From an uncultured bacterium (GTDB lineage Bacteria; Muiribacteriota; Ozemobacteria; Ozemobacterales; Ozemobacteraceae), in assembly GCA_964428355.1 (NCBI GenBank), contig CAYRYU010000004.1:67261-131260 (forward strand): a stretch of DNA of 64,000 bases. Reading direction: 5' to 3'. A program made the position numbers and the translations under genes. How positions within the stretch are numbered: the first letter of the stretch is position 1; every line of letters starts with the position of its first letter. The notes beneath the pieces are model-generated. The model was not told the origin of the DNA. It made no database searches and saw only the letters and a list, made by a program, of their open reading frames with translations. Positions 1-16,109 of this stretch are shown here, in pieces.

Positions 1-578
1 TCGAATGAAAGGATCACGTATGCCCCGGACTCGGCGATCGAACGGCAGAATCCGGGATCGCGGGCGATCCGCAATCCGTTGGAGTTAACCGTGACCCGGC
101 CGATGCCCTTGCGGGAGGATGCCTCCTTGATCAAATCGAAAAGGTTGGGATGGAGAGTGGGTTCGCCACCCGTGATATTGATCAGATCGACGGGCCCGGA
201 TCTTTCCAGGAACCGGTCGAGAAGGGAGGAAAGCTCCTCGCGGGTCATGTGGTAGGCCTTGTCGTTCCGGTTGTAGGTGAAGCAGATGGGGCATTTAAGA
301 TCGCAGGCGTTGGTGATGGAAAATACGGGGAGGTTGCATGCGCTCGAGTGGAGCGCGCATGGCCCGCAATCATACGGGCAGCCCTTTTTGACCTGTGGAC
401 TGGGGATATTGAAGGGGCGGGAAGTCATCACGTGGTCGAGACCTTTCACGTACCAGGGGAATGATTCCGCGATCAGGGCTTCCGAGGAGCCGCAGTCGGG
501 GCAGAGGTTTTCCTGGAAGACCGATCCCTTCCGCTCGAAAATGCGTGAGACGGTCAGTTTCCGGCAGGATCGGCACAT
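1..578 (-). CDS. Radical SAM enzyme, N-terminal about 190 aa only; the gene runs off the window at position 1. It is a paralogue of the 4889-6298 radical SAM.
   Basis: Manual reverse-strand translation from the ATG at 578-576 gives MCRSCRKLTVSRIFERKGSVFQENLCPDCGSS...KKGCPYDCGPCALHSSAC...ITNACDLKCPICFTYN...ITGGEPTLHPNLFDLIK...TVNSNGLRIARDP. It carries a CxxC...CxxC zinc ribbon, two CxxxCxxC motifs and a GGEP motif. It is absent from the ORF track because no stop codon falls inside the window. Confidence 0.7.
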   Translation of the reverse strand, partial: MCRSCRKLTVSRIFERKGSVFQENLCPDCGSSEALIAESFPWYVKGLDHVMTSRPFNIPSPQVKKGCPYDCGPCALHSSACNLPVFSITNACDLKCPICFTYNRNDKAYHMTREELSSLLDRFLERSGPVDLINITGGEPTLHPNLFDLIKEASSRKGIGRVTVNSNGLRIARDPGFCRSIAESGAYVILSF

Positions 579-633
579 TCCCGTGGTCGAGGAAAGGTAG
601 GTGTAGGGGCGCTCTGGACGCGTGGGAAGAATA

Positions 634-1389
634 TCAAAATCCTCCGTTGACGCTTATTTCCTGGGCATTCACGTATGACGCCCTGTCGGAAGCGAGGAAG
701 GCGACCACTTCGGCAACCTCGGCAGATTTCCCGGGGCGCCCGGCCAGACAGTAGCGGCAAAACTCCTCGATATGCTTGGAGGGAACGTTCCGGCTGACCC
801 CGTCGTCGAGGAGGCCAGGCACCACGCAGTTCACGCGGATCTGGTACTTCGCCATCTCCCTGGCGAGGGCAAGGGTGAAACCCACCATAGCGCTCTTGGA
901 CGTCGCGTAATGGACCGGAACCTCGAGGAGCCGCTGCCCGGCAAGTGACCCGAGGTTAACGATGGATCCGCGTTTCCGCCTGATCATTCCCCTGATGAAC
1001 GCGTGGGTGACGAGGAACGGGCCCTTGACGTTCGTGTCCATCAGCTTGTCCCAGTCCTCTTCCTGGATGAGGGCGAAGGGCATGATCTCGGCCATCCCCG
1101 CGTTGTTGACGAGGATATCGACCGCGAAACCCTCCTTCTCGAGCTTCTCGGACAGGGCCTTGGCGGAATCACCGTCGATGATGTCGAGCTTGTGCGCCGT
1201 CACCTTGTGTCCCGCGGCGGTCAGCTCTTCAGCTAGCTTTATGGCCGGTTCGGAGTGGTCACGGTAGGAGAAGGCAACGGCCGCACCCTCGCGGGCCATT
1301 ACGCGGACGATCTCGCGGCCGATCGCGCCGCTCCCGCCGGTAACGAAGGCAAAACGGTTTGCGAGCATGAGGCTCATCGGAAAAACCAT
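634..1389 (-). CDS. Short-chain dehydrogenase/reductase (FabG-like SDR)
   Basis: 251 aa. Rossmann motif FVTGGSGAIGREIV, NNAG motif, and a catalytic YxxxK region (YATSKSAMVGF). M5 (MSLML) is an alternative start. Confidence 0.85.
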   Translation of the reverse strand: MVFPMSLMLANRFAFVTGGSGAIGREIVRVMAREGAAVAFSYRDHSEPAIKLAEELTAAGHKVTAHKLDIIDGDSAKALSEKLEKEGFAVDILVNNAGMAEIMPFALIQEEDWDKLMDTNVKGPFLVTHAFIRGMIRRKRGSIVNLGSLAGQRLLEVPVHYATSKSAMVGFTLALAREMAKYQIRVNCVVPGLLDDGVSRNVPSKHIEEFCRYCLAGRPGKSAEVAEVVAFLASDRASYVNAQEISVNGGF

Positions 1390-1466
1390 CCTTGTTTCGA
1401 ATTCAGCAGAATGTTACCACCAATGTCCGGAAGGTTCCACCCCGGCTTTCGGGAACGGCCAGATTC

Positions 1467-3611
1467 TCAATCTCCGGGAGGGGGGGAGATGTCCATCTCG
1501 TTGAGGAGAAGGTCGACGCATTGCTGCATCGAGGGGCGGAGGACCGCCTTGGTGTCACCCATCTCGGAGAGGGTCTCCTTCGATCCGGGAAGATCCGTGA
1601 TCTGGAGAAGTGCCCGGATTCGGGCTTTGGGCGGCAGCTCCCGGGCGGACCTGGCAAGGTGCTCCATCTCGACCTCGATCAGGTCGAATCCGCCACTCTT
1701 CAACTCGCGGATGAACCCCGTGGTCTCCTGGATGGGCGAAAACACCGACCTGACCTTCGCTCCTTCGACAGGCCTGTCGATCCATGGAGGGACTCCCGAT
1801 CGCCAGGAACCTGGCATGGGCCGCATTCCCCCTTCGGGCAGGAAAACCGCTGCGGGGCGAAGGTACTGACCGATCCTGGAGTTTTGCGAAAGCCCTCCGC
1901 AGTTCCCGAAGACGAAGACGTTTCCGATTCCCTTTTCCTTAACGAGGATGTCGAGGAGGACGCCCAGCTGGTCCCCGTAGACGTTGCGCGTGAGGAGCAT
2001 CCTCCTGGTTTTGCCCTCGGAATCCCGGAAAAGAAAAGTGCTGTGGAAGAGATGTTCGTCGGAAAAGGTCTCCCGCGGCCACTCGCCGATCTTCCTGGAA
2101 GGGATCCCCGGAAACGGCGGGTTCAACCAGCGGTCCACCAGTCGGTGGTCCCGGATCGCCCATTTCGAGGGAAGTATCCTGGCGAGAGAAATGCGCTCGT
2201 CGAGGCTCTTGAGGAAGCTTCCATGGAACCCCACCATCGCAAGGTCGATTTCCCCCGGGGAAACATGGCTCAGGGCGTTCCGGTAGAGGCCCGCCACCTC
2301 GGAACGGGCTGCGTGCGGATCGGTGAAGTCGAAAACCCTGAACCCGAGCGGTTTCCGGCCCGCCCGCCAGAGCGCGGCAGCGATGAGCGCTTCGGAATGG
2401 AGCGTCCTCGTGCGACCGTAGATCCCCCCACCGTAGAGGGCCCGCAACGATCCATCGGGGTACTCGGCGACGAAGAGGGAGGTGCTGACATATTCCCGCT
2501 TCCGGGCGATCTCCACCACCCGCCGTGCTCCGGAGTCCAGGATGTGTCGGAGCACCCGGGGCCTTGTCCCGCAAACCAGGTCGACCGGAATGCCGGTGTT
2601 GGAGATGACACGCATCGCGGGTCCGGTCAACCGTTCCTCGACATAACCCGCGAGATCAACGATGGAATGGGGGGCCGAGAAGTCGATGGCTGCAGTCTCT
2701 GGGGAGGGGGGGCGTGGGGAAAGCCCGCAGGGGGATGGCAAACAAAGGGCGGATTCCGGGGCGACCGACGAAACGACCGGCTGTCCCCTTATCACATCCT
2801 CGGGGCGGGAGTCGATTCCCTCCGAGAGGAATAGGCGGAGCCACCCTGGCGACCGGGCGAGGCCGTAGGGACCGTATTTGACAAGTTTCCTCATCGCGCC
2901 GGGTGAGAGCATCCCGTCGAGTTTCCGGAGATCACCTTCCTGACAGGCTTTCCGGATGGCGGTGGAACTCATTTCCAGTCCGGGAACCGGAAGAAGGATG
3001 AGGTTTCCATCCTTCCGAAGTGTTTCCAGCATGGAAACTCGAGGGATGGGTGCACCGGGACGGTGCATGACGACAAGCTTCATCTTGTCACCGAGGCATC
3101 CGCTCCAGTTCCTGACCACTTTTTCGAGAGAATCGGAGCCGAACAACAGATACACCCGGGCTCCGGGAACCTGGTTCCCCGCCGCATGTATGATCCGACG
3201 GAATGCGCTGGAGGCTGGGCCCTCCCGATCGGCGCGGCGGATCTCCCTGGGCGAGAGTAGCTGGATTGAACTGTTCCCGTGATCCCGGAGTGCTGCCTGG
3301 ATAATCTCCGCCCGTTGCTCGAGTGACGTCATCCCGGGTTTTGAAGGATTCCTGGCATTGGGAACGATATACAGCCGGTCGAGATGGAGGCTTTCGAATG
3401 CGCTCTGGGCAAGGTGGATGTGTCCCATGTGGAAGGGGTCGAAGGTCCCAGCGAAGATTCCGAGGGCCAAATCCTTTCCGGAACCGGGGCATGCCATTGC
3501 CAGGAGCGCGAGGATGAACAGGGCAGGAAGTGACAGGGAGCACCGCAGTTGCCGTGGATTTCGGTAGTTCATCGGACAACCTCCGAAGAAATGCTCAGGG
3601 GGAATTTCCAA
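1467..3611 (-). CDS. NadD-like nucleotidyltransferase domain protein with a roughly 470-aa C-terminal extension (nucleosidase/PNP_UDP-like motifs)
   Basis: The N-terminal domain reads GIFAGTFDPFHMGHIHLAQ (cytidylyltransferase/NadD HxGH motif). The C-terminal region carries VFVFGNCGGLSQNS and DLIEVEMEHLA, reminiscent of the MTA/AdoHcy nucleosidase fold. The longest ORF starts at 3611 with a hydrophobic stretch; the alternative ATG at 3497 (MACPGSG...) would give a cytoplasmic protein that begins directly at the NadD fold. Confidence 0.6.
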   Translation of the reverse strand: MEIPPEHFFGGCPMNYRNPRQLRCSLSLPALFILALLAMACPGSGKDLALGIFAGTFDPFHMGHIHLAQSAFESLHLDRLYIVPNARNPSKPGMTSLEQRAEIIQAALRDHGNSSIQLLSPREIRRADREGPASSAFRRIIHAAGNQVPGARVYLLFGSDSLEKVVRNWSGCLGDKMKLVVMHRPGAPIPRVSMLETLRKDGNLILLPVPGLEMSSTAIRKACQEGDLRKLDGMLSPGAMRKLVKYGPYGLARSPGWLRLFLSEGIDSRPEDVIRGQPVVSSVAPESALCLPSPCGLSPRPPSPETAAIDFSAPHSIVDLAGYVEERLTGPAMRVISNTGIPVDLVCGTRPRVLRHILDSGARRVVEIARKREYVSTSLFVAEYPDGSLRALYGGGIYGRTRTLHSEALIAAALWRAGRKPLGFRVFDFTDPHAARSEVAGLYRNALSHVSPGEIDLAMVGFHGSFLKSLDERISLARILPSKWAIRDHRLVDRWLNPPFPGIPSRKIGEWPRETFSDEHLFHSTFLFRDSEGKTRRMLLTRNVYGDQLGVLLDILVKEKGIGNVFVFGNCGGLSQNSRIGQYLRPAAVFLPEGGMRPMPGSWRSGVPPWIDRPVEGAKVRSVFSPIQETTGFIRELKSGGFDLIEVEMEHLARSARELPPKARIRALLQITDLPGSKETLSEMGDTKAVLRPSMQQCVDLLLNEMDISPPPGD

Positions 3612-4206
3612 GCTGCCAGGCTCTGATGGCGGGGACCGGGTGGAGCAGCATTATTATGTTCAGGGTTAGGGAGTCCCGGATCGTCATGAGAAGGGCCATC
3701 TCGACCAGCAGAAAGACGGCGAGCGCGCGCTTCCCTCCGATACGGCTCGCGATCAGGAACCCCGTCGCGCAACAAAGGATGTCTCCGAGGGAGTTCGCAA
3801 TGGAATCCCCGAGGTATCCGAAGGAAATCGTTGCGGTGCGGTACTTCTCGATGACGAACCGGGAGTTTTCGAGCAACTCCCAGAGACACTCCATTCCCAC
3901 GGTTACCGTGACTTTCCAGAAACGATGCAGGTTCCGCGCAACGATCCAGAGGAATCCGCAGAGAAGGAAGCCGTGAAGGATATGCGTGAAGCTGTAGGGG
4001 TCGAACACGTGCTGCGAATTGTGCAGGCTGTTCACCTGACCCGCCCAAAGGGAGGGTTCTCCGCATGAACACCAGAGTGGCCGATCCTGGAGCCGGAGTC
4101 GAATCACGGCCAGGATGACGAAAAGAACCCCGGTGCAAAGAGGCGCGAACCAACCCTCTTCCTTTCCGGCGGGCCCATCAGGTGGCCTTTCCAATTCTTC
4201 GACCAT
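3595..4206 (-). CDS. DUF2585 / UPF0314 family membrane protein
   Basis: 203 aa. The recalled family signature matches: HNSQHVFDPYSFTHILHGFLL ... WELLENSRFVIEKYR ... MTIRDSLTLNIIMLLHPVPAIRAWQLG. Confidence 0.8.
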   Translation of the reverse strand: MVEELERPPDGPAGKEEGWFAPLCTGVLFVILAVIRLRLQDRPLWCSCGEPSLWAGQVNSLHNSQHVFDPYSFTHILHGFLLCGFLWIVARNLHRFWKVTVTVGMECLWELLENSRFVIEKYRTATISFGYLGDSIANSLGDILCCATGFLIASRIGGKRALAVFLLVEMALLMTIRDSLTLNIIMLLHPVPAIRAWQLGNSP

Positions 4207-4287
4207 GAGGCATCAATGGTAACGGAAAGGCCTTCCGATTTCAATCCGGTTGCAAAGGAGGTCAGGCGATAATAGTATGTCAAGGTC

Positions 4288-4875
4288 ATGAGCAGGGAAT
4301 CGGCGATCCTGGATCGGTGCCTCGGTTTGCGAGGTGCCGACCCGATCCGGGCCGCCATCGCGATGATGCATGATCTTCCGATCCGGATGCACGGTCCCGA
4401 GCACCATTTTCTCGTCCCGGGGGTCCTGCTCGGGGTCGCCCTTGCAAACAACGGTCTCGGGGTCGACGCTATCCGCCAGCGGTTGCGCGAGGCCAGGGAA
4501 AGGGCGTTGCAGGTTCCCGGGGGATTCTGCGGCTCCCATGGAGCCTGCGGGGCCGGTGTGGGCGCTGGAATCTTCTTCAGCATCCTGACGGGGGCCACCC
4601 CCCTCTCGGAAGACGAATGGAAGTGGAGCCAGGCAGCCACCGCCAGGAGCCTGGCAGCCATGGCCCGGATCGGAGGGCCCCGTTGCTGCAAACGAAGCAC
4701 ATACCTGGCTCTCCGTGCGTCGATTCTTCTCGCCCGGAGGCTCCGCGTCGCCGACTTCCCATATCCCCCCCGGATCGTCTGCGGTTTCTCGGGGATGAAC
4801 GAGGAATGTATCGGAGCTTCCTGCCCGTTCAACCCGCGCGGACTGGAATCCGCGGCTGTTACATCGCCTGCTTGA
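4288..4875 (+). CDS. Conserved Cys/His-rich hypothetical protein, immediately upstream of and probably co-transcribed with the radical SAM gene
   Basis: 195 aa with motifs HHFLVPGVLLG, GFCGSHGACGAGVGAG and PRCCKRSTYLAL. Its stop lies 14 bp before the radical SAM start codon. Confidence 0.5.
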   Translation: MSRESAILDRCLGLRGADPIRAAIAMMHDLPIRMHGPEHHFLVPGVLLGVALANNGLGVDAIRQRLREARERALQVPGGFCGSHGACGAGVGAGIFFSILTGATPLSEDEWKWSQAATARSLAAMARIGGPRCCKRSTYLALRASILLARRLRVADFPYPPRIVCGFSGMNEECIGASCPFNPRGLESAAVTSPA

Positions 4876-4888
4876 AAAGGAGTCCAGG

Positions 4889-6298
4889 ATGACCATCCCG
4901 AATGGACAACTCACGGTGACCAGAACCGTCTGCCCCGAATGCCGAAAGACCGTTCATGCAAAAGTCCTCCACCGGGATGGAAGGATCTACTTCGAGAAAC
5001 ACTGCCCCGAACACGGGGTTTCGGAAAGCCTGGTCGCTGACGATGCCCGGGCCTACCTCGACGCGATCCGGTTCGTAAGGTCAGCCTGGAAGCCTCTCCA
5101 GTTCACCTCCTCGGTCGAAAAGGGCTGCCCGGAGGATTGCGGACTCTGCCCCGACCACGAGCAGCACGTCTGCATGCCGGTTCTCGAGATCACCGACCAC
5201 TGCGACATGGAATGTCCGATTTGCCTTGTACGAAATCGCCATTCATGGCACATCACCCGCGAGGAGTTCAACCGCATACTCGACCGTCTCCTGGAATCCG
5301 AAGGTTCCATCGATGTCTTGAGCCTCTCCGGCGGCGAACCCACCCTCCACCCGCAGTTCCGCGACCTGGTCCAGGACTGCGTCGATCGGAGGAAGATCCT
5401 CAGGGTGAGCCTTTCGACCAATGGACTCCGTCTGGCCCGCGACCCGGAGTTGAGGGAGTTTTTGGGCTCCAGGAACGTCGTGGTCAGCCTCCAGTTCGAT
5501 GGAAGCGATCCCGTCGCCCTCCGGAGGATGCGTGGAGGGGATGTTTCCGCCCCCAAGAAGTCCCTCCTGGACGATCTGACGAAATCCGATTTTCCCTGTT
5601 CCCTCACCTTCACCCTCGCGGGCGGGTTGAACGAAGAGGGACTCGCGGAAGCGGTCGATCTTCTGTTCGCGAGGCCGAACATCCTGAGCCTGATGGTTCA
5701 ACCCCTGGCCTTCTGCGGCCACGGAAGCGAACTTTCCCCGGAAGACGGCCAGGGGCCAGGTCAGATCAGGAAGGTGTTCATCCCCGAGGTCACCCGCCTG
5801 CTTGAAAAGCATGGAAAGGGCCGTGTCTCGGCCAGCGACTTCCTTCCCCTTCCATGCAGCCATCCCAACTGTTTCTCCCTGGGGTTTTTCCTCAAACACG
5901 ACGACGGGGGCTTTTCCGCGCTCGCCAAGTTGTTCGACCCCACGACCTACCTCGACATCCTCAAGAACCGGTCTTTCTTCGGGACCGATCCCCAGAACTT
6001 CGACGACATACAGAACGCTGTCTACCAGCTTTGGTCCGGAGGTTCGGGGAACGCGCCCGATTCGAAGAAAGCCCTCCACTCGATCAAGACCCTGCTCCGG
6101 AAGATCCAGGGCGGAGGCGGGTTCGACGCCTCCCGCAACATCACGATCGCCGAGCGGGCGATGAAATCCGTTTTCATCCATGCGTTCATGGACCCCGGCA
6201 CCTTCGACATCGGCAGGGTAAGGAAGTGCTGCCAGGTCTATCCCCTGAGGGACGGCCGGCTGGTGCCGATCTGCGCTTACAATAACCTGATCAGGTGA
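4889..6298 (+). CDS. Radical SAM enzyme with an N-terminal zinc-ribbon/rubredoxin-like motif (possible Tes/GDGT-MAS-like family)
   Basis: 469 aa. CPECRK...HCPEHG at the N-terminus, then CPEDCGLC and the canonical CDMECPIC (CxxxCxxC). LSLSGGEPTLHP and SLSTNGLRLARDPE are present, with C-terminal Cys residues (HPNCFSLGFF, CCQVYP...ICAYNN) consistent with auxiliary clusters. Confidence 0.85.
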   Translation: MTIPNGQLTVTRTVCPECRKTVHAKVLHRDGRIYFEKHCPEHGVSESLVADDARAYLDAIRFVRSAWKPLQFTSSVEKGCPEDCGLCPDHEQHVCMPVLEITDHCDMECPICLVRNRHSWHITREEFNRILDRLLESEGSIDVLSLSGGEPTLHPQFRDLVQDCVDRRKILRVSLSTNGLRLARDPELREFLGSRNVVVSLQFDGSDPVALRRMRGGDVSAPKKSLLDDLTKSDFPCSLTFTLAGGLNEEGLAEAVDLLFARPNILSLMVQPLAFCGHGSELSPEDGQGPGQIRKVFIPEVTRLLEKHGKGRVSASDFLPLPCSHPNCFSLGFFLKHDDGGFSALAKLFDPTTYLDILKNRSFFGTDPQNFDDIQNAVYQLWSGGSGNAPDSKKALHSIKTLLRKIQGGGGFDASRNITIAERAMKSVFIHAFMDPGTFDIGRVRKCCQVYPLRDGRLVPICAYNNLIR

Positions 6299-9242
6299 GG
6301 GTTCCGCCCCCGGAAAGGATCATGAGGGAAATGTCGTCCGCGGGGGGATCCTCGGGAGAAACCCGGGAATGCCAGTCCCGGAGAGCGCGTTCGATTTCGA
6401 CCGGGTCGTTCCCTTCGGGGGTCGACAGGTCCAGGTTCTCGACGGCCTCCTGGCACCGGGGAAAACCCAGGGAGGCTCCGTTCGTGTCCGTGGCTTCAAA
6501 GAAACCATCGGAGTGGAACACGAGGACATCACCCCGGACGAGCCTGAACTCGACCTCGGGATAGCTCTTCCTGTTCCTCGTTCCGAGGGGAAACCCGGAG
6601 ACTCCGATCTGCTCGGCCTTTCCCGCTCGAAGCAGGAAGGGAAACGTCTGGCCGGCATTCGCCATCCGCAGGGTCCCGGATTCCACATCCAGAACCGCTA
6701 TCATGCATGTCATCATCATCCGTTTCTGGAGAAGGCGGGAGAATACCTCCTGGCAGGTGTCCAGGAACTCTCCCGGCTGGTGACTGCAGGCGGGATGGTT
6801 GAGCATCGCCTTTGCCATTCCGACCACGAGTGCGGCTGGTACCCCGTGACCGGAAACGTCGCCCAGCAACATCAGTATCCGTCCGCCGTCGAGAGGGAAA
6901 TAATCGAAGTAGTCGCCTCCCACATGGCTTGCGGGGCGGCAGGTTCCGAATATTCTCCAAGCCCCGAGATCGAGGGGTTTTCGGGGGAACAACTGCTCCT
7001 GGGTGACTTTCGCCACTTCCAGATCCTCGAGTCCCGCCAGCATCTCGTTGAAGGTTTCCGACAGGACTCCCATCTCGTCAAGGTCCAATACCGGAATCCG
7101 GTGCGAGAACCGACGTTCATCGATCGCCCTGACCCCCTCGGCAAGATTCATGACCGGTGCGAGGAACCTGTCCGACAAGGCAACTGAGGCCGCGTAACCG
7201 AAGAAGAGTAACGACAGGCAGATCACCAATATAACCAGCAGGGGGACCCGTAAGGCAGACATGATCTCCCGGCCGGATGAGACAAGGAAGAGATAGGTAT
7301 GGGGAAGAAGCTGGGCTTTCAATCCGGTCATGAACATCCGGATTCCATCTTTCCCCTCAAAAACCATCTTGACGGGCTTTCCCTGGTTGGCAACCAGATC
7401 CTTTATCCAGCTCACTTCCCGGTGATAGGGAAAACTCTCGTCATACTTCTGGCCAACGAGATGGACCAGGATGGAAATCCCCCGGTTCCTTGCCAGAAAT
7501 GCGGGAAGTGATCTCTCCAGGTAGAAATCCCGGACGGAAAGATCCTGCCAACCGAAGAGTGCTGCCAGCCGGGTCCGCCTTCCTGCGTCCTTGAATGGGA
7601 AAAGCAGCATCTCGAATCTTCCGTTCGCAAACTTGAACGACTTGATGGTTTTTACGTAGGCGGTGAGATTCGCAAACATGAAATCCGCGTTCAAACCGAG
7701 GTAATCGAGGGTGGATTTCAAAAGAATCTCCTCCCGTGGGTCCGGGGAGCCCCCCTCCGGGTCTTTCAGGTCTGGGAAGGCCGCATGGATCTGGCTTCGT
7801 AGGATCGGCCGGAGTTTCTGCACGTGGTCCGCCCATCCGGATTCGGTGGAGAAGACCGATTTCCGCTTTTCATCTATCACCTCACAGGCATCCACCGAAA
7901 AGCGGCGGGTCACTTCCCGGCAACGGGCGATGCATTGCTCGGGGGAAAAATCCCGTCCGGGGAATGGTTTACCCAGTGCCTCCAGAACCTCGTTCTGGAA
8001 GGTCCCGACCCCGGCGTGGAAGTCCTGCTCGAAGTCCGCCACCAGGCGTTCGTGCTTGGCGAACAACTCCTTTTCGAGCGTCCGCTTCCTGTCCTGGAGG
8101 AACCTGTGCGATCCAATCCCGACGATCAGCAAAGGAATCCCGACGACATAGGAGAAAAGGAATGCGAATTTCCACCTGATTGACCGGGAAACCCCGGGAC
8201 TTTTCCCTTTCCCGGGCCAACCGGTTCCCGTTGCCATTCCTCCGGAGATTTCCTCCCCGCCGGTCAGGAGTGGGAACGACCATACTCCGAGCAGGAGGAA
8301 CGAAACCAGGCAGATCACTCCTCCTGCCGCCCTGAGCGCACGCCAATCGGCGGGGGCGGAGTTGGGAAGTGCGAGAAGCAGGCTCAAGCTTGGGTCGACC
8401 GGAAGACATCCCCAAAGGAACCCGCGGTCCCGATGGAACCGCCCGGGTTCCGATTGCAGGTGCATGAAAGCTCGGTCCAGGAATGGATGCAGGTCTCCCC
8501 ACGTGGCGGGATCCCCTGGTCGGGATGAGGACATCGTGACGAACCCGGCACGGAGCTCCGGATACCTCTTCCGCATGGCCTTCAGATGGATGCCCGGGCC
8601 AAGACGGTTCCAGTCCTTGGTTTGGGAGATCCAGGACAGGAACATCCCTTTCTCGGTCGGCCAGGAAACGAAGAGATACGATCGCTTCTCACTATATGAG
8701 GCCGAGAAAAAGTGGTTGATCAGCGGAACCTTCGGATAATGGCAGAAGGCGGGCCCCAGGAAAGGCTGATAATCCTTGAAGTTCGCTTCGAGGGGCGTGC
8801 GGTTCATATCTTGGAACTGCCGGCAGTCGCGGAAGAAAGCCCTGACGGTTTTGGCTGGAGGAATGATATCGGAGAGATCCGTGACGGTGTTCCCCCGGTC
8901 GTCGATCAGAAGGAACTCGAACGTCCCCGGAAACTCTTTTTGCAGCCACTTCTTCAAATCCGAAAAGAACCCTCTCGGGTTCAAATCACCGAAGACCTCT
9001 GCCTGAAGCCTTAGAAGAGAATCGTTGAGGAACGAGGCGGAAGTCCGGGACCCCTCGAGTTCGAGCCTCATGATCGACATCTTCCGCTCCAGGTCTTCCC
9101 AGGAGTCGGCTTCCCACCCGGAAAGAACCTGCGAAATCCAGAGGAACACGAGAAAGAGGGGAACCCCGAAGAAGAAGGAAGATGCCGCCAGCCAGCGGAA
9201 TCTGGGAAAACTGGGAACCCCGGGATGCGCTTCCTGCCTCAT
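6291..9242 (-). CDS. Membrane sensor serine phosphatase: extracytoplasmic sensor domain, HAMP, PP2C/SpoIIE (RsbU-like)
   Basis: HAMP region LAPVMNLAEGVRAIDERRFSHRIPV...DEMGVLSETFNEMLAGL. PP2C motifs GGDYFDYFPL and LLGDVSGHGVPAAL. The start is set at the ATG at 9242, which forms an ATGA overlap with the upstream paralogue's stop; the longest ORF would start at 9278. Confidence 0.85.
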   Translation of the reverse strand: MRQEAHPGVPSFPRFRWLAASSFFFGVPLFLVFLWISQVLSGWEADSWEDLERKMSIMRLELEGSRTSASFLNDSLLRLQAEVFGDLNPRGFFSDLKKWLQKEFPGTFEFLLIDDRGNTVTDLSDIIPPAKTVRAFFRDCRQFQDMNRTPLEANFKDYQPFLGPAFCHYPKVPLINHFFSASYSEKRSYLFVSWPTEKGMFLSWISQTKDWNRLGPGIHLKAMRKRYPELRAGFVTMSSSRPGDPATWGDLHPFLDRAFMHLQSEPGRFHRDRGFLWGCLPVDPSLSLLLALPNSAPADWRALRAAGGVICLVSFLLLGVWSFPLLTGGEEISGGMATGTGWPGKGKSPGVSRSIRWKFAFLFSYVVGIPLLIVGIGSHRFLQDRKRTLEKELFAKHERLVADFEQDFHAGVGTFQNEVLEALGKPFPGRDFSPEQCIARCREVTRRFSVDACEVIDEKRKSVFSTESGWADHVQKLRPILRSQIHAAFPDLKDPEGGSPDPREEILLKSTLDYLGLNADFMFANLTAYVKTIKSFKFANGRFEMLLFPFKDAGRRTRLAALFGWQDLSVRDFYLERSLPAFLARNRGISILVHLVGQKYDESFPYHREVSWIKDLVANQGKPVKMVFEGKDGIRMFMTGLKAQLLPHTYLFLVSSGREIMSALRVPLLVILVICLSLLFFGYAASVALSDRFLAPVMNLAEGVRAIDERRFSHRIPVLDLDEMGVLSETFNEMLAGLEDLEVAKVTQEQLFPRKPLDLGAWRIFGTCRPASHVGGDYFDYFPLDGGRILMLLGDVSGHGVPAALVVGMAKAMLNHPACSHQPGEFLDTCQEVFSRLLQKRMMMTCMIAVLDVESGTLRMANAGQTFPFLLRAGKAEQIGVSGFPLGTRNRKSYPEVEFRLVRGDVLVFHSDGFFEATDTNGASLGFPRCQEAVENLDLSTPEGNDPVEIERALRDWHSRVSPEDPPADDISLMILSGGGTLT

Positions 9243-12127
9243 CTTACCCCCCCAGCGGTGGGTTCCGGGACAGGGCACTGAAGGATCATCACGGTCAGAT
9301 CATCCGGTGGCCTCTGATTTCCGACCGTGAGTCCATACCAGCGACGGATGGACTGCTCCGTCTCACCTGCCGATTTTCCTACCAGCGTCGGAAGAGCCGC
9401 AAACCAACGCGGGAAGCCGATCACCCCGCCTCCGGGAAGCGGGGATTCCACCATCCCGTCCGTGAAAAAGACCACGCAATCGCCTGGAACAAGTTCGTAT
9501 CGGTTCTCTGGATAGCCTTTCGAGGGGATGATTCCAAGGATGAAACCCTTCGATTCGAGGGAAACCGCTTTTCCGGAGCGGATGAGAACCGGGTGGGGGT
9601 GGCCTCCGTTCGCCACGGTGCAGGATCCTGATTTCGGATCGAAACTCAGACAGCAGCAGGTCATCGAGGTCTCCCGGGAAAAGGTTTTCAGAAAAACCTG
9701 ATTGAGTGTTTCAAGGATCGGCCCAGGATTCTTTGGGGTTCGGGGATGGAAGAAAACCGTCTTGGCCATAGCCATGACCAGTCCGGAGGCGATCCCATGC
9801 CCGACGACGTCACCGATGATCAGGATCAGTCTCCCATCGGAAGTGACGATGTAATCGAAATAGTCTCCGCCGATCTGGCTCAGGGGTTGGGAAGTCCCGA
9901 ATACCTCCCAGTTTCCGGACCGAAGGGCTTCCCTCGGAAAAAGGTGCTCCTGAACCGCGCGAGCCGGCTCCAGGTCCTGCAACCCGGTCATCATCCAGTT
10001 GAAGGTGGCGGAGAGTTTTCCCAGCTCGTCCTGGTCTCCGACGGGGATCCTGGTTTCGAAACGCCGTTGACGGATAGCTTCCACCCCATCGGAAAGGTCC
10101 CGGATCGGGACGAGGAAAATCGAGGCCAGGAACCCGCCCACGGTCACACTTCCAAAAAGGATGAACAGCCCAGAGAAAAGGAAACTCGCCCCGAGTTCCC
10201 CCAGCTCCAGCCGGATGCCGCGGTCCGAGCTTACGGCGAGGAGGTTGAACTGGGAAAGCTCTCGGCATCGGAAGCCCGTAACAAGAAGGTCGCCATCTTC
10301 CCCCGGCGCCGTCTCCCGCAAGCCCCGGTCTCCTGCTCGGACCCGGTCCAGGAAGCGCCGGACGGATTCAATCCGTCTAAAATCGGCGGGGAAGGAAAGC
10401 TCGGGGTTCTCCCTATCGAAAGCGAAAACCGTTCCCTCCTCGAGGGTCCGTCCGAAGGCAGCCAGGTTCCGCCGAACGTAATTCCGGGCCAGGTCGTCCC
10501 TGCGCCAGAAGATCGAGAGGAAGAACCGGGCGATGGAATTCCGGTCGTGGATTGGGAAGAGAATGTTCAAGAACTCCTTTCCCCCGATATCGAAAGCGCT
10601 GATCTTTCCCAGCTCATTTCCCACCCGTGCCAGGATGCTCTCGAATTCTGGGGGGAGGCCTTCCGTATCGCTTTCGCCCGATGGTCCGGAGAGCGGAGCG
10701 GTGGAGGTCCCTGTGTTCAGGATCCTAAGTAGGAATTTCGAGGTCCGGTCGAAGATCGCCATCGGTCGGGTGCCCCCAAAATGCGAAGGGGGGCTCCCAG
10801 GGAGGATTATCTCTTTCCCCGATTCATCATGGAGGGAGTCCGAGTCCCATGCGAAGCGGGGTTGCATGTCGGAGATCGACTTTTTCAGCCCCATGGGCGT
10901 CTGTTCCTCGTTGTAGATCATGGGGTAGAAGACCTGGCGCATTTCGGATTCGATCCGGTCGAATTCGAGTTGGAAGTTCCGGTCGAAAGCTTCCAGGGCG
11001 GTCTCGACACTGTCGTGAAGGGCATCTTCGAGAATCACCCGTCTCTCCCTGAGGACCTCGCCGCTGCTCCAGGCCATCAACGAAAGGGGAATTGCGGCGG
11101 TGTAGGCAAAGGCAAGGATCAGTTTCAAGCGGACCGAAAGGCTCCCGAACATTCTGCCCGAGGAAAGGCCGAAAGCCGTTAGGAAGGCAAGACTCCCAGC
11201 CACCACCAGGCCGATTATCGCTCGGGTCCTGCGAACCATTTCCGCGGGATTGTTGGGGACTGCCCGGCAGCCGAGGATCCGGATTCCCCGGCCCACCTCC
11301 CGTTTCGCCCATGTCCGGCCGCTATTGATGATGGATGCACAGTTCCCGGTTTCAAGTTCATCCAGGATTTCCCGGATGGTCCCGGTCGAAGCGCCCATGG
11401 TTCTTGCGATCTCGGGGATACGGGTGGCTCGGTGGAACACTCCGATCCTGGTTCCTTTCGACTCCCGGTTGAGGCGCCGCACCCGGTCTTGGATTGCGAG
11501 AAAGGGCCAGCGGGAGGTTTCAGAGAGGAAAACGATCATCATTCCCTGAGCCGAGGGCCGGCCGAGATACAGGTACCTTTTCTTTGCGATCTTTCTTCCC
11601 ATCTGTATGGTCCGGAATCCCCCACGGTGGATCTCGGAAAATTCGCCAAGGAAGCTTTTCAGAAAAGACGGGCCTGGGTCCTGCGGCGGGGGAAGGCCTT
11701 CCAGGAGCGCCCTGCATGCAAAGAAGAAGCGTTTGGAGAGGATGCGGGGGACGGGGTCGTCGCAGAGCCCTGGCGCGGGCTCGCCTTTGCCGTCGAGGAA
11801 CACGAACGAAAAAACCCCCGGAAACCTGCGATGCAGGGTTTTCCTGATCCGGGCGAACCTGGAACGTGCGTTAGACCCGGAAAAAACACGCCTCTCGACG
11901 GTTCCCAGAAGCCTCCCCATGAATTTCGAGGGGTTGGCGAACTCGTCCATCCCGCGGAGGGTTTTCTCGAGCCTTCTTTCCTGGTCTTTCCGCTTCCAGA
12001 GTTCCCTTTCGTGGAAAAGGAAAGCCGTTCCGAGGAAGGTGAACAACGGAGGAATCAGGCAGAAAAGAAGGACCCAAACCCTGCTGTTGGGCGATTTGTG
12101 GGCCGGCCCGCAACCTTGGGAGGTCAT
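9239..12127 (-). CDS. Membrane sensor serine phosphatase (HAMP + PP2C/SpoIIE), tandem paralogue
   Basis: 962 aa. IRDLSDGVEAIRQRRFETRIPV...DELGKLSATFNWMMTGL (HAMP). GGDYFDYIVTSDGRLILIIGDVVGHGIASGLVMAMAK (PP2C). Two TM segments bracket a roughly 300-aa periplasmic region. Confidence 0.85.
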   Translation of the reverse strand: MTSQGCGPAHKSPNSRVWVLLFCLIPPLFTFLGTAFLFHERELWKRKDQERRLEKTLRGMDEFANPSKFMGRLLGTVERRVFSGSNARSRFARIRKTLHRRFPGVFSFVFLDGKGEPAPGLCDDPVPRILSKRFFFACRALLEGLPPPQDPGPSFLKSFLGEFSEIHRGGFRTIQMGRKIAKKRYLYLGRPSAQGMMIVFLSETSRWPFLAIQDRVRRLNRESKGTRIGVFHRATRIPEIARTMGASTGTIREILDELETGNCASIINSGRTWAKREVGRGIRILGCRAVPNNPAEMVRRTRAIIGLVVAGSLAFLTAFGLSSGRMFGSLSVRLKLILAFAYTAAIPLSLMAWSSGEVLRERRVILEDALHDSVETALEAFDRNFQLEFDRIESEMRQVFYPMIYNEEQTPMGLKKSISDMQPRFAWDSDSLHDESGKEIILPGSPPSHFGGTRPMAIFDRTSKFLLRILNTGTSTAPLSGPSGESDTEGLPPEFESILARVGNELGKISAFDIGGKEFLNILFPIHDRNSIARFFLSIFWRRDDLARNYVRRNLAAFGRTLEEGTVFAFDRENPELSFPADFRRIESVRRFLDRVRAGDRGLRETAPGEDGDLLVTGFRCRELSQFNLLAVSSDRGIRLELGELGASFLFSGLFILFGSVTVGGFLASIFLVPIRDLSDGVEAIRQRRFETRIPVGDQDELGKLSATFNWMMTGLQDLEPARAVQEHLFPREALRSGNWEVFGTSQPLSQIGGDYFDYIVTSDGRLILIIGDVVGHGIASGLVMAMAKTVFFHPRTPKNPGPILETLNQVFLKTFSRETSMTCCCLSFDPKSGSCTVANGGHPHPVLIRSGKAVSLESKGFILGIIPSKGYPENRYELVPGDCVVFFTDGMVESPLPGGGVIGFPRWFAALPTLVGKSAGETEQSIRRWYGLTVGNQRPPDDLTVMILQCPVPEPTAGGVR

Positions 12128-12974: not shown

Positions 12975-13916
12975 TCAACCCAGGATCGAAATGGCGCGGG
13001 GAAGGATCTTCCACCGCGCGGAAGCAGCCTCGATGATTTCGCCGTCGAAATCGACCGGCTGCGGACTCTCGAAAACAACTGATGCCTGCGAGGTTTCCAG
13101 GAAGTGGACGTCGGGATGACCTCCCAGCCCCTTCTTCTCGAACTCACCGATGAGGCTTATCAGGCGAAAGGGGGAAATCTTTTCGCAGACGGCGAGGTCG
13201 AAGAGACCGTCGTCGGTTTTCCGTTCAGTCATGAAAAAGAACTGGCCGGCGATGTGAGACCTCTTGACGAGGCTCATCCCAGTGAAAAGGCCTTCCCAGG
13301 TTTTTCCACCCGCTTCGACCTTTCCCCTGAACCCGGGGTAGGTGAAGACTTCCCAGGCCGAAACGGCCATCAGAGACCCCCAATACCAGTATCTGTAGGC
13401 GGTATTGAAAAACCCGGGCCTGCCCGTCAGCCTGAAATTCGCTGACGGGATCGTCCCCACGTGGGATGACTGGAGGAAAAAACGGGTCAGGGTTTTTCCG
13501 TCCGGGCAGGTAATCTCGATCGAAAAAACGTCGTGGGGATGCGGGGTGGCTGGGTCGATCCGGACGGGGACTCCTTCGATCCGGTCGGCTTTCGACAGCG
13601 GCTTGTGGAAGTCGTTGCTCGTTCCGAGAGCGATCGCACCCAGGTGGAGATTGAAAGAGGGCGAGCGGGGCGGGGCTTCCATCAGCGCATCCAGTACGGT
13701 CTGGATGGTCCCGTCCCCTCCGGCGGCAATGAAGTGGGTTCCCCCTCGGGAGAAGGTTTCCCGGACGCGTCCGATCATCATCTCCCGTGAACTGCACCGG
13801 TGAACGCAAAGATCCGTGAACCGTCGCCTGAGGCCGGGTTCGAGGGAGTTCCATGCCTTGTCGGCGGTTCCCCGTCCCGCGGCGGGATTGAGGAAGATTT
13901 CGAGTGTCGGCGGCAT
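12975..13916 (-). CDS. DAGK_cat-family lipid kinase (diacylglycerol/sphingosine/ceramide-kinase-like, YegS-like)
   Basis: 313 aa with the FIAAGGDGTIQTVLDAL motif (GGDGT) typical of the DAGK catalytic domain. Confidence 0.8.
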   Translation of the reverse strand: MPPTLEIFLNPAAGRGTADKAWNSLEPGLRRRFTDLCVHRCSSREMMIGRVRETFSRGGTHFIAAGGDGTIQTVLDALMEAPPRSPSFNLHLGAIALGTSNDFHKPLSKADRIEGVPVRIDPATPHPHDVFSIEITCPDGKTLTRFFLQSSHVGTIPSANFRLTGRPGFFNTAYRYWYWGSLMAVSAWEVFTYPGFRGKVEAGGKTWEGLFTGMSLVKRSHIAGQFFFMTERKTDDGLFDLAVCEKISPFRLISLIGEFEKKGLGGHPDVHFLETSQASVVFESPQPVDFDGEIIEAASARWKILPRAISILG

Positions 13917-13932
13917 TCCGGTGCTTTTCCCC

Positions 13933-15198
13933 TTACCCGAGGACTCCGTATTTCTTCCCGAGTTCCCTCAGGAGGCCCATCGAAAAGTCGAGGTCTTCCC
14001 CCGAATGTGTGGCCATGACCGTCAATCGGATCCGTTCCGTTCCGGGGGCTACGGCGGGATACTCGATGAGCGAAAGGAAAAGGCCTCGTTCGTAGGCTTC
14101 CTTGACGATTCCGTAAGCCTTTTCCCGGTTCCTGATGAAAACGGGAATGATGGGAGTGTCTTTTCCCGCCACCTCGTATCCCATCTCCTCGAGACTCGTT
14201 CTGACGATCCGCATGTTCTCGTGAAGCCGGGAAATCAGCTCGGGGTGCTCCTCCAGGACCTCCAGACCCGCAAGGCAGGCGGCGACGGTCATCGGAGCGA
14301 CCGCGGCGGTGAACATTCCCGCCCTGGCGAAATGCCGAAGCCAGTTGATCAGGACCTTGGATCCCGCGATGAAACCTCCGTAGCAGCCAAATGCCTTGCT
14401 GAAAGTGCCCATGACGATGTCGACCTCTCCCTCGACCCCGCAGGCTTCGAGGCTTCCATGACCATGGGAGCCCACAGCACCGGTTCCATGGGCGTCGTCG
14501 ACCAAAAGGGTTGCCCGGTGCCTCTTGCAGACGTCGACGATCTCACGGAGGGGCGCTATCTCGCCGTCCATGCTGTAGACGCCGTCGACCGCCACGAGCT
14601 TGAGACCCGGGATCTCCCGGGCCTCGACCAGGCAGCGGTCGAGATCCCCGGGGTCGGAATGCTTGAAAACGAACCTTCTCGCCCGGCTGAAACGGGCACC
14701 GTCGATGAGGCTCGCGTGGTTCAGTTCGTCGCCGATGAATGCGTCATTCTTGCCCAGGATCGCGGTGAGACACCCCACGTTGGCCGAATATCCCGATGGA
14801 AAGAGCATCGCCGCTTCGCACCCCTTGAAAGCGGCGAGCCGGGACTCGAACTCCTGGTGAAGTGTCGTATTTCCATTGAGAGTACAAGGTCCAGCCATGC
14901 CAATGCCCCACCGGTCGATCGCATGCTTGGTCTTTTCGATGACCCGGGGGTGGGTCGTCATCCCGAGGTAGTTGTTGCTCGCCATCATCACCATGTCGAG
15001 GGGCTTTCCGGTCTCGAGGGAAACCGCCTCGATGTGGTTCCGGCTGGGGCCGGTGGTGGTCCGGAAGAAGAGGTAAAGCTTCTGCCGGCGGGCCTCCTCG
15101 ATCACCTTGTCGAAAATCTCCATCTTTTCCTGGAGTGGGAGATCCGGGTCGGAAACCAGCGCTTTGACATCGAAATTCTGGACATCCATATTGCTCAC
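13933..15198 (-). CDS. Alpha-oxoamine synthase family PLP enzyme, serine palmitoyltransferase-like
   Basis: 421 aa with MASNNYLGMT, FPSGYSANVG, LVAVDGVYSMDGEIAPL and GTFSKAFGCYGGF (the PLP lysine). There are about 70 aa before the NNYLG core, as in Spt/ALAS and unlike BioF/Kbl. Confidence 0.85.
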   Translation of the reverse strand: MSNMDVQNFDVKALVSDPDLPLQEKMEIFDKVIEEARRQKLYLFFRTTTGPSRNHIEAVSLETGKPLDMVMMASNNYLGMTTHPRVIEKTKHAIDRWGIGMAGPCTLNGNTTLHQEFESRLAAFKGCEAAMLFPSGYSANVGCLTAILGKNDAFIGDELNHASLIDGARFSRARRFVFKHSDPGDLDRCLVEAREIPGLKLVAVDGVYSMDGEIAPLREIVDVCKRHRATLLVDDAHGTGAVGSHGHGSLEACGVEGEVDIVMGTFSKAFGCYGGFIAGSKVLINWLRHFARAGMFTAAVAPMTVAACLAGLEVLEEHPELISRLHENMRIVRTSLEEMGYEVAGKDTPIIPVFIRNREKAYGIVKEAYERGLFLSLIEYPAVAPGTERIRLTVMATHSGEDLDFSMGLLRELGKKYGVLG

Positions 15199-15953
15199 CT
15201 CGGTGGAATCTGTTCGCTGATGGCAGGCTCTTTGAACAAGGGCCCGAGAAGCTCCCGGAGAACCCGTGCGGTTTCAACGGTGGGGCGATCGGCGGGCACG
15301 ATGTCCCAGCCCTCCTTTTGGGCGCGATCCAGGAAAAGGGCCCGAAGCCGGGCCTGGAATTCCAGGAAGGTCTTTTCCGATGGCGCGGCGAATCCGCATT
15401 CGTATGGGGTCACTTTTGGTTTTCTGGACCAGGCTTCCCCGGGAGGAAGGTCGAGGAGGATCGTCCGAGAGGGCTTGGGAAAACGTTCCGCCACGTTCTG
15501 GAGCCATTCGAGCGATTCGCCGTGGAGGGCTTCGGTGAAGGCATATTTGTACCAGTAGCCGTCAGCCAGGAGGATTCCCCCCTTCGGGTCAGCCCTCTCG
15601 AGGGCTTCCATGAGCGCGTGGAAGACGAACAGAGCCCTCGGCCCTTTTTCAAGTGACCCGAGGTAGCGATGGATCGCCTCCCGGTCCGAAATGAAAGGGT
15701 GCGAGTGATACCGGGGATTGCGGGTGATCTCCCAGACCGAGACGGGAACCGCCGGGAGCCCGAACTCCTCTGAAAGCCAGTCGGCAATAAGCTTCAGATG
15801 CGTGGATTTTCCGCACCCATCCGTGCCTGTCAGGCAGATCAGCGCGGGAAGGGCGGATGTTCCGCCCGCCGGAGTTTCCCGGACTTTTCCGGTCTTCGGG
15901 AAACCCGGTCCGGATTTCCCTCGGGAGGGACGGGACCGATTGGTGGGGGCCAT
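15195..15953 (-). CDS. P-loop nucleotide/nucleoside kinase, thymidylate-kinase-like fold
   Basis: Walker A LICLTGTDGCGKSTH; a later RTILLDLPPGEAWSRK stretch resembles the Tmk lid/DR region. The start is placed at ATG 15953 with an AGGAGA RBS; the longest ORF would start at 15989. Confidence 0.55.
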   Translation of the reverse strand: MAPTNRSRPSRGKSGPGFPKTGKVRETPAGGTSALPALICLTGTDGCGKSTHLKLIADWLSEEFGLPAVPVSVWEITRNPRYHSHPFISDREAIHRYLGSLEKGPRALFVFHALMEALERADPKGGILLADGYWYKYAFTEALHGESLEWLQNVAERFPKPSRTILLDLPPGEAWSRKPKVTPYECGFAAPSEKTFLEFQARLRALFLDRAQKEGWDIVPADRPTVETARVLRELLGPLFKEPAISEQIPPR

Positions 15954-16109
15954 GGTTATCTCCTGTCCCAGTGCCGGGACACCCCCCATATATCAGAAAT
16001 CCCCCTCCCTAACAACCTGCCCCGGTGAAGGACTGCGGGAAGGCCCTTCAGAGGAGATCGGGCCTGGAATGGTTGCCTGGTGCCGGGTTCGGGATCGGCG
16101 GCGGGGGAA

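Follow-up and report, generated by a model that had tools for sequence, protein, structure and literature searches.

A conserved pair of Tes-like radical SAM genes in bacteria, its association with type II fatty acid/polyketide synthase-like genes, and its rearranged form in a genome of the Ozemobacteraceae

GDGT-MAS, or Tes (MJ0619 of M. jannaschii; structures 7TOL and 7TOM; NCBIfam model NF045702), links two saturated lipid tails at their termini and uses two molecules of S-adenosylmethionine (SAM) for each bond. To our knowledge, no other enzyme is known that couples two inert sp3 carbons with the help of an iron-sulfur cluster. In the GDGT-MAS reaction, a carbon-sulfur intermediate precedes the C-C bond (PMC9433317). 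Bacterial homologs of Tes have been noted since 2022 and have been proposed to act in the synthesis of glycerol dialkyl glycerol tetraethers of the branched type (brGDGTs), but their function has not been assigned (PMC8941075; PMC11868695). According to a 2026 review, the lipid modifications attributed to radical SAM enzymes are almost wholly isoprenoid, and ladderanes and jawsamycin are the sole proposed cases with ketoacyl chains. Here, we analyzed two paralogous radical SAM genes, rSAM-A and rSAM-B, in a stretch of 64,000 nucleotides (nt) from an uncultured bacterium of the Ozemobacteraceae (contig CAYRYU010000004.1, positions 67,261 to 131,260; hereafter, the window is this whole stretch). 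We suggest, with a probability of roughly 0.55, that the two genes belong to a conserved bacterial Tes-like pair which forms C-C bonds by radical chemistry on a dedicated acyl chain, and that the operon to which the pair belongs, composed of a short-chain dehydrogenase/reductase (SDR) gene followed by A and B, is split in this genome.

A preliminary description of this DNA claimed two paralogs, and translation bore this out. rSAM-B (4889..6298, plus strand) is complete and encodes a GDGT-MAS-like protein of 469 amino acids (aa), which falls into the group that we call clade B. rSAM-A (1..578, minus strand) encodes the N-terminal 192 aa of a 458-aa clade A protein, and its frame leaves the window at the left end; the full-length gene was recovered from the overlapping contig L090 (2129-3505), whose sequence agrees fully with that of the window over 1377 bp. 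The frames of rSAM-B and of full-length rSAM-A are both uninterrupted. The rSAM-A fragment, which starts with MCRSCRKL, shares 40% identity with rSAM-B over 193 aa (E 1e-51), the full-length protein shares 31.7% over 461 aa, and both proteins match the Pfam families Zn_ribbon_HMPTM and Radical_SAM. rSAM-A shares 57% identity with its clade A counterpart in L003, a well-preserved cluster from another genome, and rSAM-B is 51-60% identical to other clade B proteins; the nearest named relatives are found in metagenome-assembled genomes of Riflebacteria/Ozemobacteraceae. The 16 codons 5' of the rSAM-A ATG (window 579-656, minus strand) encode a sequence ending in RPYTYLSSTTG that aligns with the N termini of orthologs, and the sole in-frame start candidate before the stop at 656 is an ATT at 632. 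Either a non-canonical start is in use or the extension is a relic of a longer N terminus.

The preliminary description also proposed a Tes/GDGT-MAS-like architecture, and the similarity indeed covers the whole length of the proteins rather than the radical SAM core only. The best sequence match of rSAM-B in the PDB is 7TOL (E 5e-47, query residues 10-468), in an alignment that spans the N-terminal metal site through the C-terminal CC...C motif. We built an AlphaFold2 (AF2) model of rSAM-B from 88 homologs (predicted local distance difference test score [pLDDT] 84.6, predicted template modeling score [pTM] 0.88) and compared it with known structures by Foldseek. 7TOM and 7TOL, with template modeling (TM) scores of 0.81 and 0.76 over 486-496 columns, were the sole full-length fold match; every other radical SAM structure scored below 0.4. 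Neither of the outcomes that the preliminary description had named as refuting, a different characterized subfamily as the top full-length match or similarity to Tes limited to the core, was observed. The model contains the four domains of the Tes fold, namely the rubredoxin-like domain, the N-terminal cluster domain, the radical SAM core, and the C-terminal cluster domain.

The motifs read earlier in the two proteins (a zinc-ribbon-like site, CPxDCGxC, CDxxCPIC, and GGEPTLHP) were all recovered. The N-terminal mononuclear site, C2-x2-C5-x20-C26-x2-C29 in rSAM-A and C15-x2-C18-x20-C39-x2-H42 in rSAM-B, has the same spacing as the C-x2-C-x20-C-x2-H/C site of GDGT-MAS, and its fourth ligand is a Cys (C29) in the former and a His (H42) in the latter. 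The first Cys motif, of the same C-x3-C-x2-C form as in GDGT-MAS, reads CPYDCGPC in rSAM-A and CPEDCGLC in rSAM-B, and the residues of the N-terminal cluster are C67, C71, C74, and H77 in rSAM-A and C80, C84, C87, and H90 in rSAM-B. The radical SAM motif reads CDLKCPIC (C92, C96, C99) and CDMECPIC (C105, C109, C112), respectively, and is accompanied by the GGEP of the SAM-binding motif GGEPTLHP, which is the same in both. Among 88 clade B sequences, the invariant positions of rSAM-B are C15, C18, C39, H42, C80, C84, C87, H90, H93, C95, C105, C109, and C112 in the N-terminal half and C323, H325, C328, H431, C447, C448, Y451, and C462 in the C-terminal half; H93 and C95, which closely follow the first Cys motif, are additional to what is found in GDGT-MAS.

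To compare ligands, 7TOL was aligned with 106 Tes-like proteins from the fetched loci (32 of clade A, 31 of clade B, and 43 of a third group, clade T); its sequence was rebuilt from the HMMER alignment, and the numbering reproduces the residues named in PMC9433317. C9, C12, and C33 of the rubredoxin-like site are invariant in clades A and B and conserved in clade T, and the fourth ligand, H36, is His in 20, Cys in 10, and another residue in 2 proteins of clade A, His in 27 and Cys in 4 of clade B, and His in 39, Cys in 2, and another residue in 2 of clade T. C73, C77, C80, and H83 of the N-terminal cluster are invariant in all 106 sequences, as are C98, C102, and C105 of the radical SAM cluster in clades A, B, and T. 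The C-terminal C338, C455, and C470, which were assigned as ligands by alignment and conservation rather than from coordinates (the identity of the ligands in 7TOL likewise being taken from conservation), are Cys in 32/32 clade A and 31/31 clade B proteins and mostly absent from clade T. Judged by alignment, all four metal sites of GDGT-MAS thus appear to be conserved in the pair. The position of Met439, a labile ligand invariant in 1000 archaeal homologs (PMC9433317), is occupied by His in 31/32 proteins of clade A and 31/31 of clade B, including both window proteins (H431 in rSAM-B), and by V, M, L, or T in clade T. Since the M439A variant of GDGT-MAS stays active (PMC9433317), this exchange weakens membership in Tes rather than the mechanism. 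Tyr459, which lies near the substrate terminus and is invariant in archaeal homologs (PMC9433317), is retained in 31/31 clade B proteins (Y451 in rSAM-B); at this position, clade A has V, N, or I (Val in rSAM-A of the window) and clade T mostly has I or F. C456 is often lost in clade A and is kept in clade B.

The two proteins are nevertheless not Tes in the strict sense. In neighbor-joining trees with 100 bootstraps and one characterized Tes (GDGT-MAS) included, clade A (32 sequences) was recovered in 100/100 replicates and clade B (31 sequences) was monophyletic in 38/100, while GDGT-MAS joined clade T, made up of 43 single-copy genes from bacteria and archaea, in 96/100. In the comparison with the Tes family model that the preliminary description had called for, the scores fell short: against NF045702 (cut-off 450 bits), rSAM-B reached 206 bits, the rSAM-A fragment 123, and full-length rSAM-A orthologs 198-203. 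Another model, that of the radical SAM protein TrsS, many members of which contain selenocysteine (NF045646, cut-off 490 bits), gave 240 bits for rSAM-B, 122 for the rSAM-A fragment, and 211-219 for rSAM-A orthologs; it is the top-scoring NCBIfam model, over its full length, for rSAM-B and for every Tes-like clade tested. A/B orthologs and ten other Tes-like proteins from bacteria and archaea are likewise below the cut-offs of both models. Because they form clades separate from that of GDGT-MAS, rSAM-A and rSAM-B are relatives and not orthologs of Tes, and the Met-to-His exchange points the same way.

In most clade T genes (L039-L084), with Hymenobacter, Pelomonas, and Acidobacteriota among the sources, the C-terminal Cys trio of GDGT-MAS, clade A, and clade B is missing, and a small subgroup of clade T nearest to GDGT-MAS (Chloroflexota, Dehalococcoidia, and Nitrososphaera) keeps it. 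Bacterial "Tes homologs" therefore differ in their sets of metal sites. A third Tes-like paralog, found at L008:14334-15749 and L023:8049-9926, falls outside clades A, B, and T and keeps Met439 as well as the C-terminal Cys.

The gene neighborhood of the pair is conserved. Loci were sampled by similarity to the rSAM-A N terminus; a scan of one genome per species gave 79 loci, and more were added by exact-protein look-ups. The proteins of the L003 cluster were then compared by tblastn with all loci, 39 of which carry A and/or B (A/B loci) and 43 of which carry clade T genes only (T-only loci). The counts for the A/B loci are lower bounds because many loci are cut by contig ends. A FabG-like SDR was found in 32/39 A/B loci and 3/43 T-only loci, a FabF-like ketosynthase (KS) in 24/39 and 2/43, an ApeI/FabZ-like dehydratase (DH) in 23/39 and 0/43, and KS and dehydratase together in 22/39 and 0/43. 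A second KS without catalytic residues, resembling a chain length factor (CLF), accompanies 19/39 A/B loci and 1/43 T-only loci; the catalytic Cys-His-His motifs that mark an active ketosynthase are present in KS2, and KS1 is shortened and lacks them, as is the case in KS/CLF pairs. The acyl carrier protein (ACP; 14/39), a second FabZ-like protein (12/39), a nitroreductase-like protein (17/39), and a hexapeptide transferase (9/39) were each present in 0/43 T-only loci, and a radical SAM protein of 340 aa was present in 11/39 and 1/43. Both A and B are present in 20 loci; in 18 of them, B follows downstream of A in the same orientation, and in 11 the two genes are immediate neighbors, in several cases with stop and start codons that overlap. 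The A/B loci span more than ten phyla, and their sources include Verrucomicrobiota, Planctomycetota, Myxococcota, Muiribacteriota, Syntrophomonadaceae, Bacteroidota, Actinomycetota, Burkholderiales, Riflebacteria, and others.

Other genes recur as well. A class III aminotransferase is found in about ten A/B loci. The cluster at L013:3921-18772 (Planctomycetota) has five radical SAM genes: besides A and B, there are two with products of about 340 aa and a SPASM-type one of 399 aa. It also carries two SDR genes as well as genes for a class III aminotransferase and a hexapeptide transferase. The hexapeptide protein resembles acyl-/acetyltransferases, and we can only guess that it might offload the product or modify it further. 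At L004:8015-9422 and L005:5563-12773, several of the cluster genes appear in split form. The idea that truncated rSAM-A homologs on long contigs are selenoproteins was rejected: translation of L004 against the near-identical L003 revealed frameshifts in long-read assemblies, not selenocysteine codons.

This neighborhood independently supports a lipid or acyl chain as the substrate. With its similarity to type II fatty acid synthase (FAS)/polyketide synthase (PKS) gene sets, it leads us to expect that the substrate is a chain of ketoacyl origin and not an isoprenoid ether lipid. We propose that a non-isoprenoid chain would be made by a dedicated type II FAS or highly reducing type II PKS-like set consisting of the KS/CLF heterodimer, ACP, SDR, and FabZ-like dehydratases, with the SDR acting as the β-ketoreductase (KR) of this machinery. 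In each of the two radical SAM enzymes, the CX3CX2C cluster and SAM would generate a 5'-deoxyadenosyl radical, which would take a hydrogen from an unactivated carbon of the long acyl chain. As in GDGT-MAS, the substrate radical might be held or relayed by the C-terminal [4Fe-4S] cluster, which would allow a new C-C bond to form; this bond may couple two chains or close a ring. A and B would probably work jointly in a complex or one after the other.

Compared with described clusters, the A/B loci can be set beside highly reducing type II PKS clusters of the aryl-polyene type and the putative ladderane cluster I of anammox bacteria. The former share with the A/B loci a FabF-like KS with a partner lacking the catalytic Cys/His, an ACP, a FabG-like KR, and ApeI/FabZ-like dehydratases. 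However, no adenylating or aryl-starter genes were seen in the A/B clusters, which contain two Tes-like genes and as many as three further radical SAM genes, along with genes for a nitroreductase-like protein and a hexapeptide transferase and, in many cases, for a class III aminotransferase. Ladderane cluster I, composed of amxACP, amxFabZ, FabF2/FabFmut, a phytoene-dehydrogenase-like enzyme, and a B12 radical SAM enzyme, is similar in its FAS II-like genes, its KS/CLF-like FabF pair, and a radical SAM enzyme thought to remodel a ketoacyl chain. Its radical SAM enzyme, however, is cobalamin dependent and not Tes-like, it includes a phytoene dehydrogenase homolog, and it is restricted to anammox bacteria, whereas the A/B cluster occurs in more than ten phyla.

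Several points weigh against the proposed Tes-like chemistry on a dedicated acyl chain. Support for a monophyletic clade B is weak, the trees are neighbor-joining trees only, and every sampled A/B locus comes from a metagenome-assembled genome, clades A and B being known from sequence alone. Clade A lacks Tyr459 and often C456, and both clades have His for Met439, so that the chemistry of the C-terminal cluster may differ from that of GDGT-MAS. The additional radical SAM genes, up to three in a cluster, and the frequent aminotransferase and hexapeptide transferase genes mean that the product cannot be deduced from the cluster. Finally, KS, CLF, ACP, and dehydratase genes of the cluster kind are absent from the 64-kb window and from 7.6 kb of its left flank, and for this genome the link to FAS/PKS genes is thus drawn solely from orthology; in relatives of the same lineage, the KS and ACP genes are at least 10 kb away or out of view.

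A full-text literature search returned no description of the A/B pair or its cluster; most subscription papers are outside the coverage of that search, and a prior description is possible. The present analysis sorts the bacterial Tes homologs into groups by gene context and, in part, by metal sites, and two of these groups, A and B, are a pair that travels with its own fatty acid/polyketide machinery across more than ten phyla. This helps to ask which of the bacterial Tes homologs could serve the membrane-spanning lipids that are used as palaeoclimate proxies. It also defines a minimal gene set (SDR, A, and B plus KS/CLF and ACP) as a route to a possible new class of lipids. We tentatively raise the possibility that the pair and the KS/CLF-ACP cluster make such a class, in which non-isoprenoid acyl chains would be joined to each other at their tails, in a form that possibly spans the membrane, or would be cyclized, by cluster-assisted C(sp3)-C(sp3) coupling of the Tes type. 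If this were true, Tes chemistry would extend to ketoacyl lipids, and the cluster would supply candidate genes for orphan bacterial lipids of anoxic sediments and soils, including some of the unexplained branched tetraether and diacid pools. The contribution of the window itself is more modest, being a rearranged SDR-A-B core without the rest of the cluster.

It could also be supposed that the two proteins are true synthases of tetraether or membrane-spanning lipids which act on bulk membrane phospholipids and join the tails of two ordinary (iso-)fatty acyl chains to give diabolic-acid-type tetraesters or brGDGT precursors. The full-length GDGT-MAS architecture with every metal site kept would suit such enzymes, as would the detachment of the pair from KS and ACP genes in the lineage of the window, and brGDGT synthesis is the role that has been proposed for bacterial Tes homologs (PMC8941075; PMC11868695). 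We consider this unlikely: neither protein attains half of the Tes cut-off, GDGT-MAS belongs to another clade, and the Met439 that is invariant in archaeal homologs is a His here. Moreover, across phyla the pair has KS/CLF, ACP, KR, and DH genes of its own, which fits a dedicated chain better than a bulk membrane lipid. The demonstrated bacterial synthase of membrane-spanning lipids, Mss of Thermotoga (Sahonero-Canavesi et al. 2022), is a radical SAM enzyme that is proposed to join two fatty acyl tails with the assistance of clusters, by the mechanism of Tes. Mss was found separately from the bacterial Tes homologs, and neither an A/B pair nor a KS/CLF cluster is reported for it.

Somewhat less probable still is that rSAM-B is the sole catalyst and that rSAM-A is a diverged partner for electron transfer, scaffolding, or substrate delivery, or catalyzes another reaction such as desaturation or C-S bond formation. 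This would be in agreement with the frequent translational coupling of A and B and with the losses in clade A of Tyr459 and often of C456, both kept by clade B; the fourth ligand of the N-terminal site is also more variable in clade A. On the other hand, clade A keeps the radical SAM motif, GGEP, and the three C-terminal Cys without exception, which argues for an active radical SAM enzyme. A division of labor with B as the catalyst and A as a diverged partner can be regarded as a variant of the Tes-like pair acting on a dedicated acyl chain and is compatible with the loss of Tyr459.

In the window, the pair was described as paired genes, which holds in that two paralogs are present; however, they lie on opposite strands, 4.3 kb apart. 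As in the conserved pair, there is a clade A and a clade B gene with a FabG-like SDR directly upstream of A. The SDR (634..1389, minus strand; Pfam adh_short/KR) scores 206 bits with the NCBIfam FabG model (cut-off 222) and shares 61.7% identity with the KR encoded in the L003 cluster; it is the ortholog of the ketoreductase found ahead of rSAM-A in conserved clusters. Its start is probably at 1377 rather than 1389, which gives 247 aa, the product on record. In the closest relatives in which the upstream sequence is visible (55-60% identity to rSAM-B; Riflebacteria/Ozemobacteraceae-like), the SDR, A, and B genes are arranged in tandem. On this comparison, the ancestral state appears to be a tandem SDR-A-B operon that was split in this genome by local rearrangement. 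In P0003, the closest relative of rSAM-B, the 251 bp 5' of the gene before the start of the contig encode neither rSAM-A nor DUF5714, which shows that B can stand alone.

The minus-strand string that ends in rSAM-A has the order DUF2585, NadD-like fusion, SDR, and rSAM-A, which was confirmed in L091. It is headed by a DUF2585 membrane protein (3595..4206; Pfam DUF2585, E 4e-59), followed by a NadD-like cytidylyltransferase fusion (1467..3611; Pfam CTP_transf_like, residues 50-227) that scores 84 bits with the NCBIfam NadD model (cut-off 112). Pfam, NCBIfam, and PDB sequence searches gave no match for the C-terminal part of the fusion (about 480 aa; window 1467-2840, minus strand). On the plus strand, a Cys-rich protein of 195 aa (4288..4875; Pfam DUF5714, E 8e-55) ends 13 nt before rSAM-B. 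A divergent spacer of 81 bp (4207..4287) separates the two strings. A scan for promoters and terminators gave nothing above chance level, which includes the one sigma-70-like match in this spacer (4244-4216, minus strand). The Pfam and NCBIfam assignments agree with the neighboring genes as they had been described.

The preliminary description took the Cys-rich gene to be operonic with rSAM-B, and the two are probably cotranscribed here, but DUF5714 was rejected as a conserved partner: like DUF2585 and the NadD-like fusion, it was found by tblastn in none of the 39 other A/B loci, so the locus is not conserved as one system that includes these three genes, and in two other genomes DUF5714 genes have unrelated neighbors with no radical SAM gene adjoining. 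The window copy lacks the Cys-rich, zinc-ribbon-like N-terminal part of about 45 aa of typical members, which have 235 aa. Its model (pLDDT 91.7) is all-helical, with the invariant motifs MHGPEHH, GFCG..CGA, and GGPRCCKR; although the model is confident, a fold search of the PDB gave no match, and a literature search returned no description of DUF5714.

It is quite improbable that rSAM-B and DUF5714 form a two-gene system related to TrsS and MbdU, with a chemistry linked to metals or selenium and not to lipids. Apart from the 13-nt spacing on the same strand, what speaks for it is that the best NCBIfam matches are TrsS for rSAM-B, over the full model length, and MbdU, the metal-binding double selenoprotein with two selenocysteine sites (NF045648), for DUF5714. 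Yet rSAM-B reaches 240 of the 490 bits needed for TrsS, DUF5714 reaches 69.5 bits against a cut-off of 600 with only model positions 95-266 of 468 aligned, and neither gene has an in-frame UGA, that is, a selenocysteine codon. DUF5714 is also missing from all 43 T-only loci, as it is from the other A/B loci, its two copies elsewhere have no such neighbor, and rSAM-B is 55-60% identical to genes in SDR-A-B operons. A literature search returned no function for TrsS.

Hardly credible, finally, is a role as the pterin methyltransferases first proposed for MJ0619: although the JGI annotation of many homologs bears the name "7,8-dihydro-6-hydroxymethylpterin dimethyltransferase" and the Pfam domain is named Zn_ribbon_HMPTM, the neighborhood is fatty acid/polyketide-like and the bacteria that carry the pair are, as far as we know, not methanopterin producers. 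The assignment for MJ0619 was not reproduced and has been replaced by GDGT-MAS on structural and biochemical grounds (PMC9433317), which makes the pterin methylase annotation obsolete.

Downstream of rSAM-A, the string continues on contig L090 (3584-9724) with a gene for a 136-aa protein of no known family, followed by those for a CN hydrolase, an amidohydrolase, a class III aminotransferase, and an aldehyde dehydrogenase and by the start of a gene for a Cys-rich protein. These genes resemble an amine/amide catabolic module. Elsewhere in the window, a type I megasynthase of 2629 aa (24192-32081, minus strand) is composed of a nitronate monooxygenase (NMO)-like enoyl reductase, KS, acyltransferase (AT), ACP, KR, and a C-terminal phosphopantetheinyl transferase; it lies about 18 kb from rSAM-B, and its KS is the sole KS in the window. 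The operon described as sphingoid-type (12975-15989, minus strand) consists of a class I/II aminotransferase similar to serine palmitoyltransferase/KBL (13933-15198), a DAGK_cat/YegS-like lipid kinase (12975-13916), and a protein weakly similar to thymidylate kinase (15195-15989). Two tandem genes on the minus strand (6291-9278 and 9239-12127) encode membrane proteins that are about 960-995 aa long and combine a HAMP domain with a phosphatase domain of the SpoIIE/PP2C kind. The first of these genes converges on rSAM-B, and the end of this gene overlaps that of rSAM-B by 8 bp.

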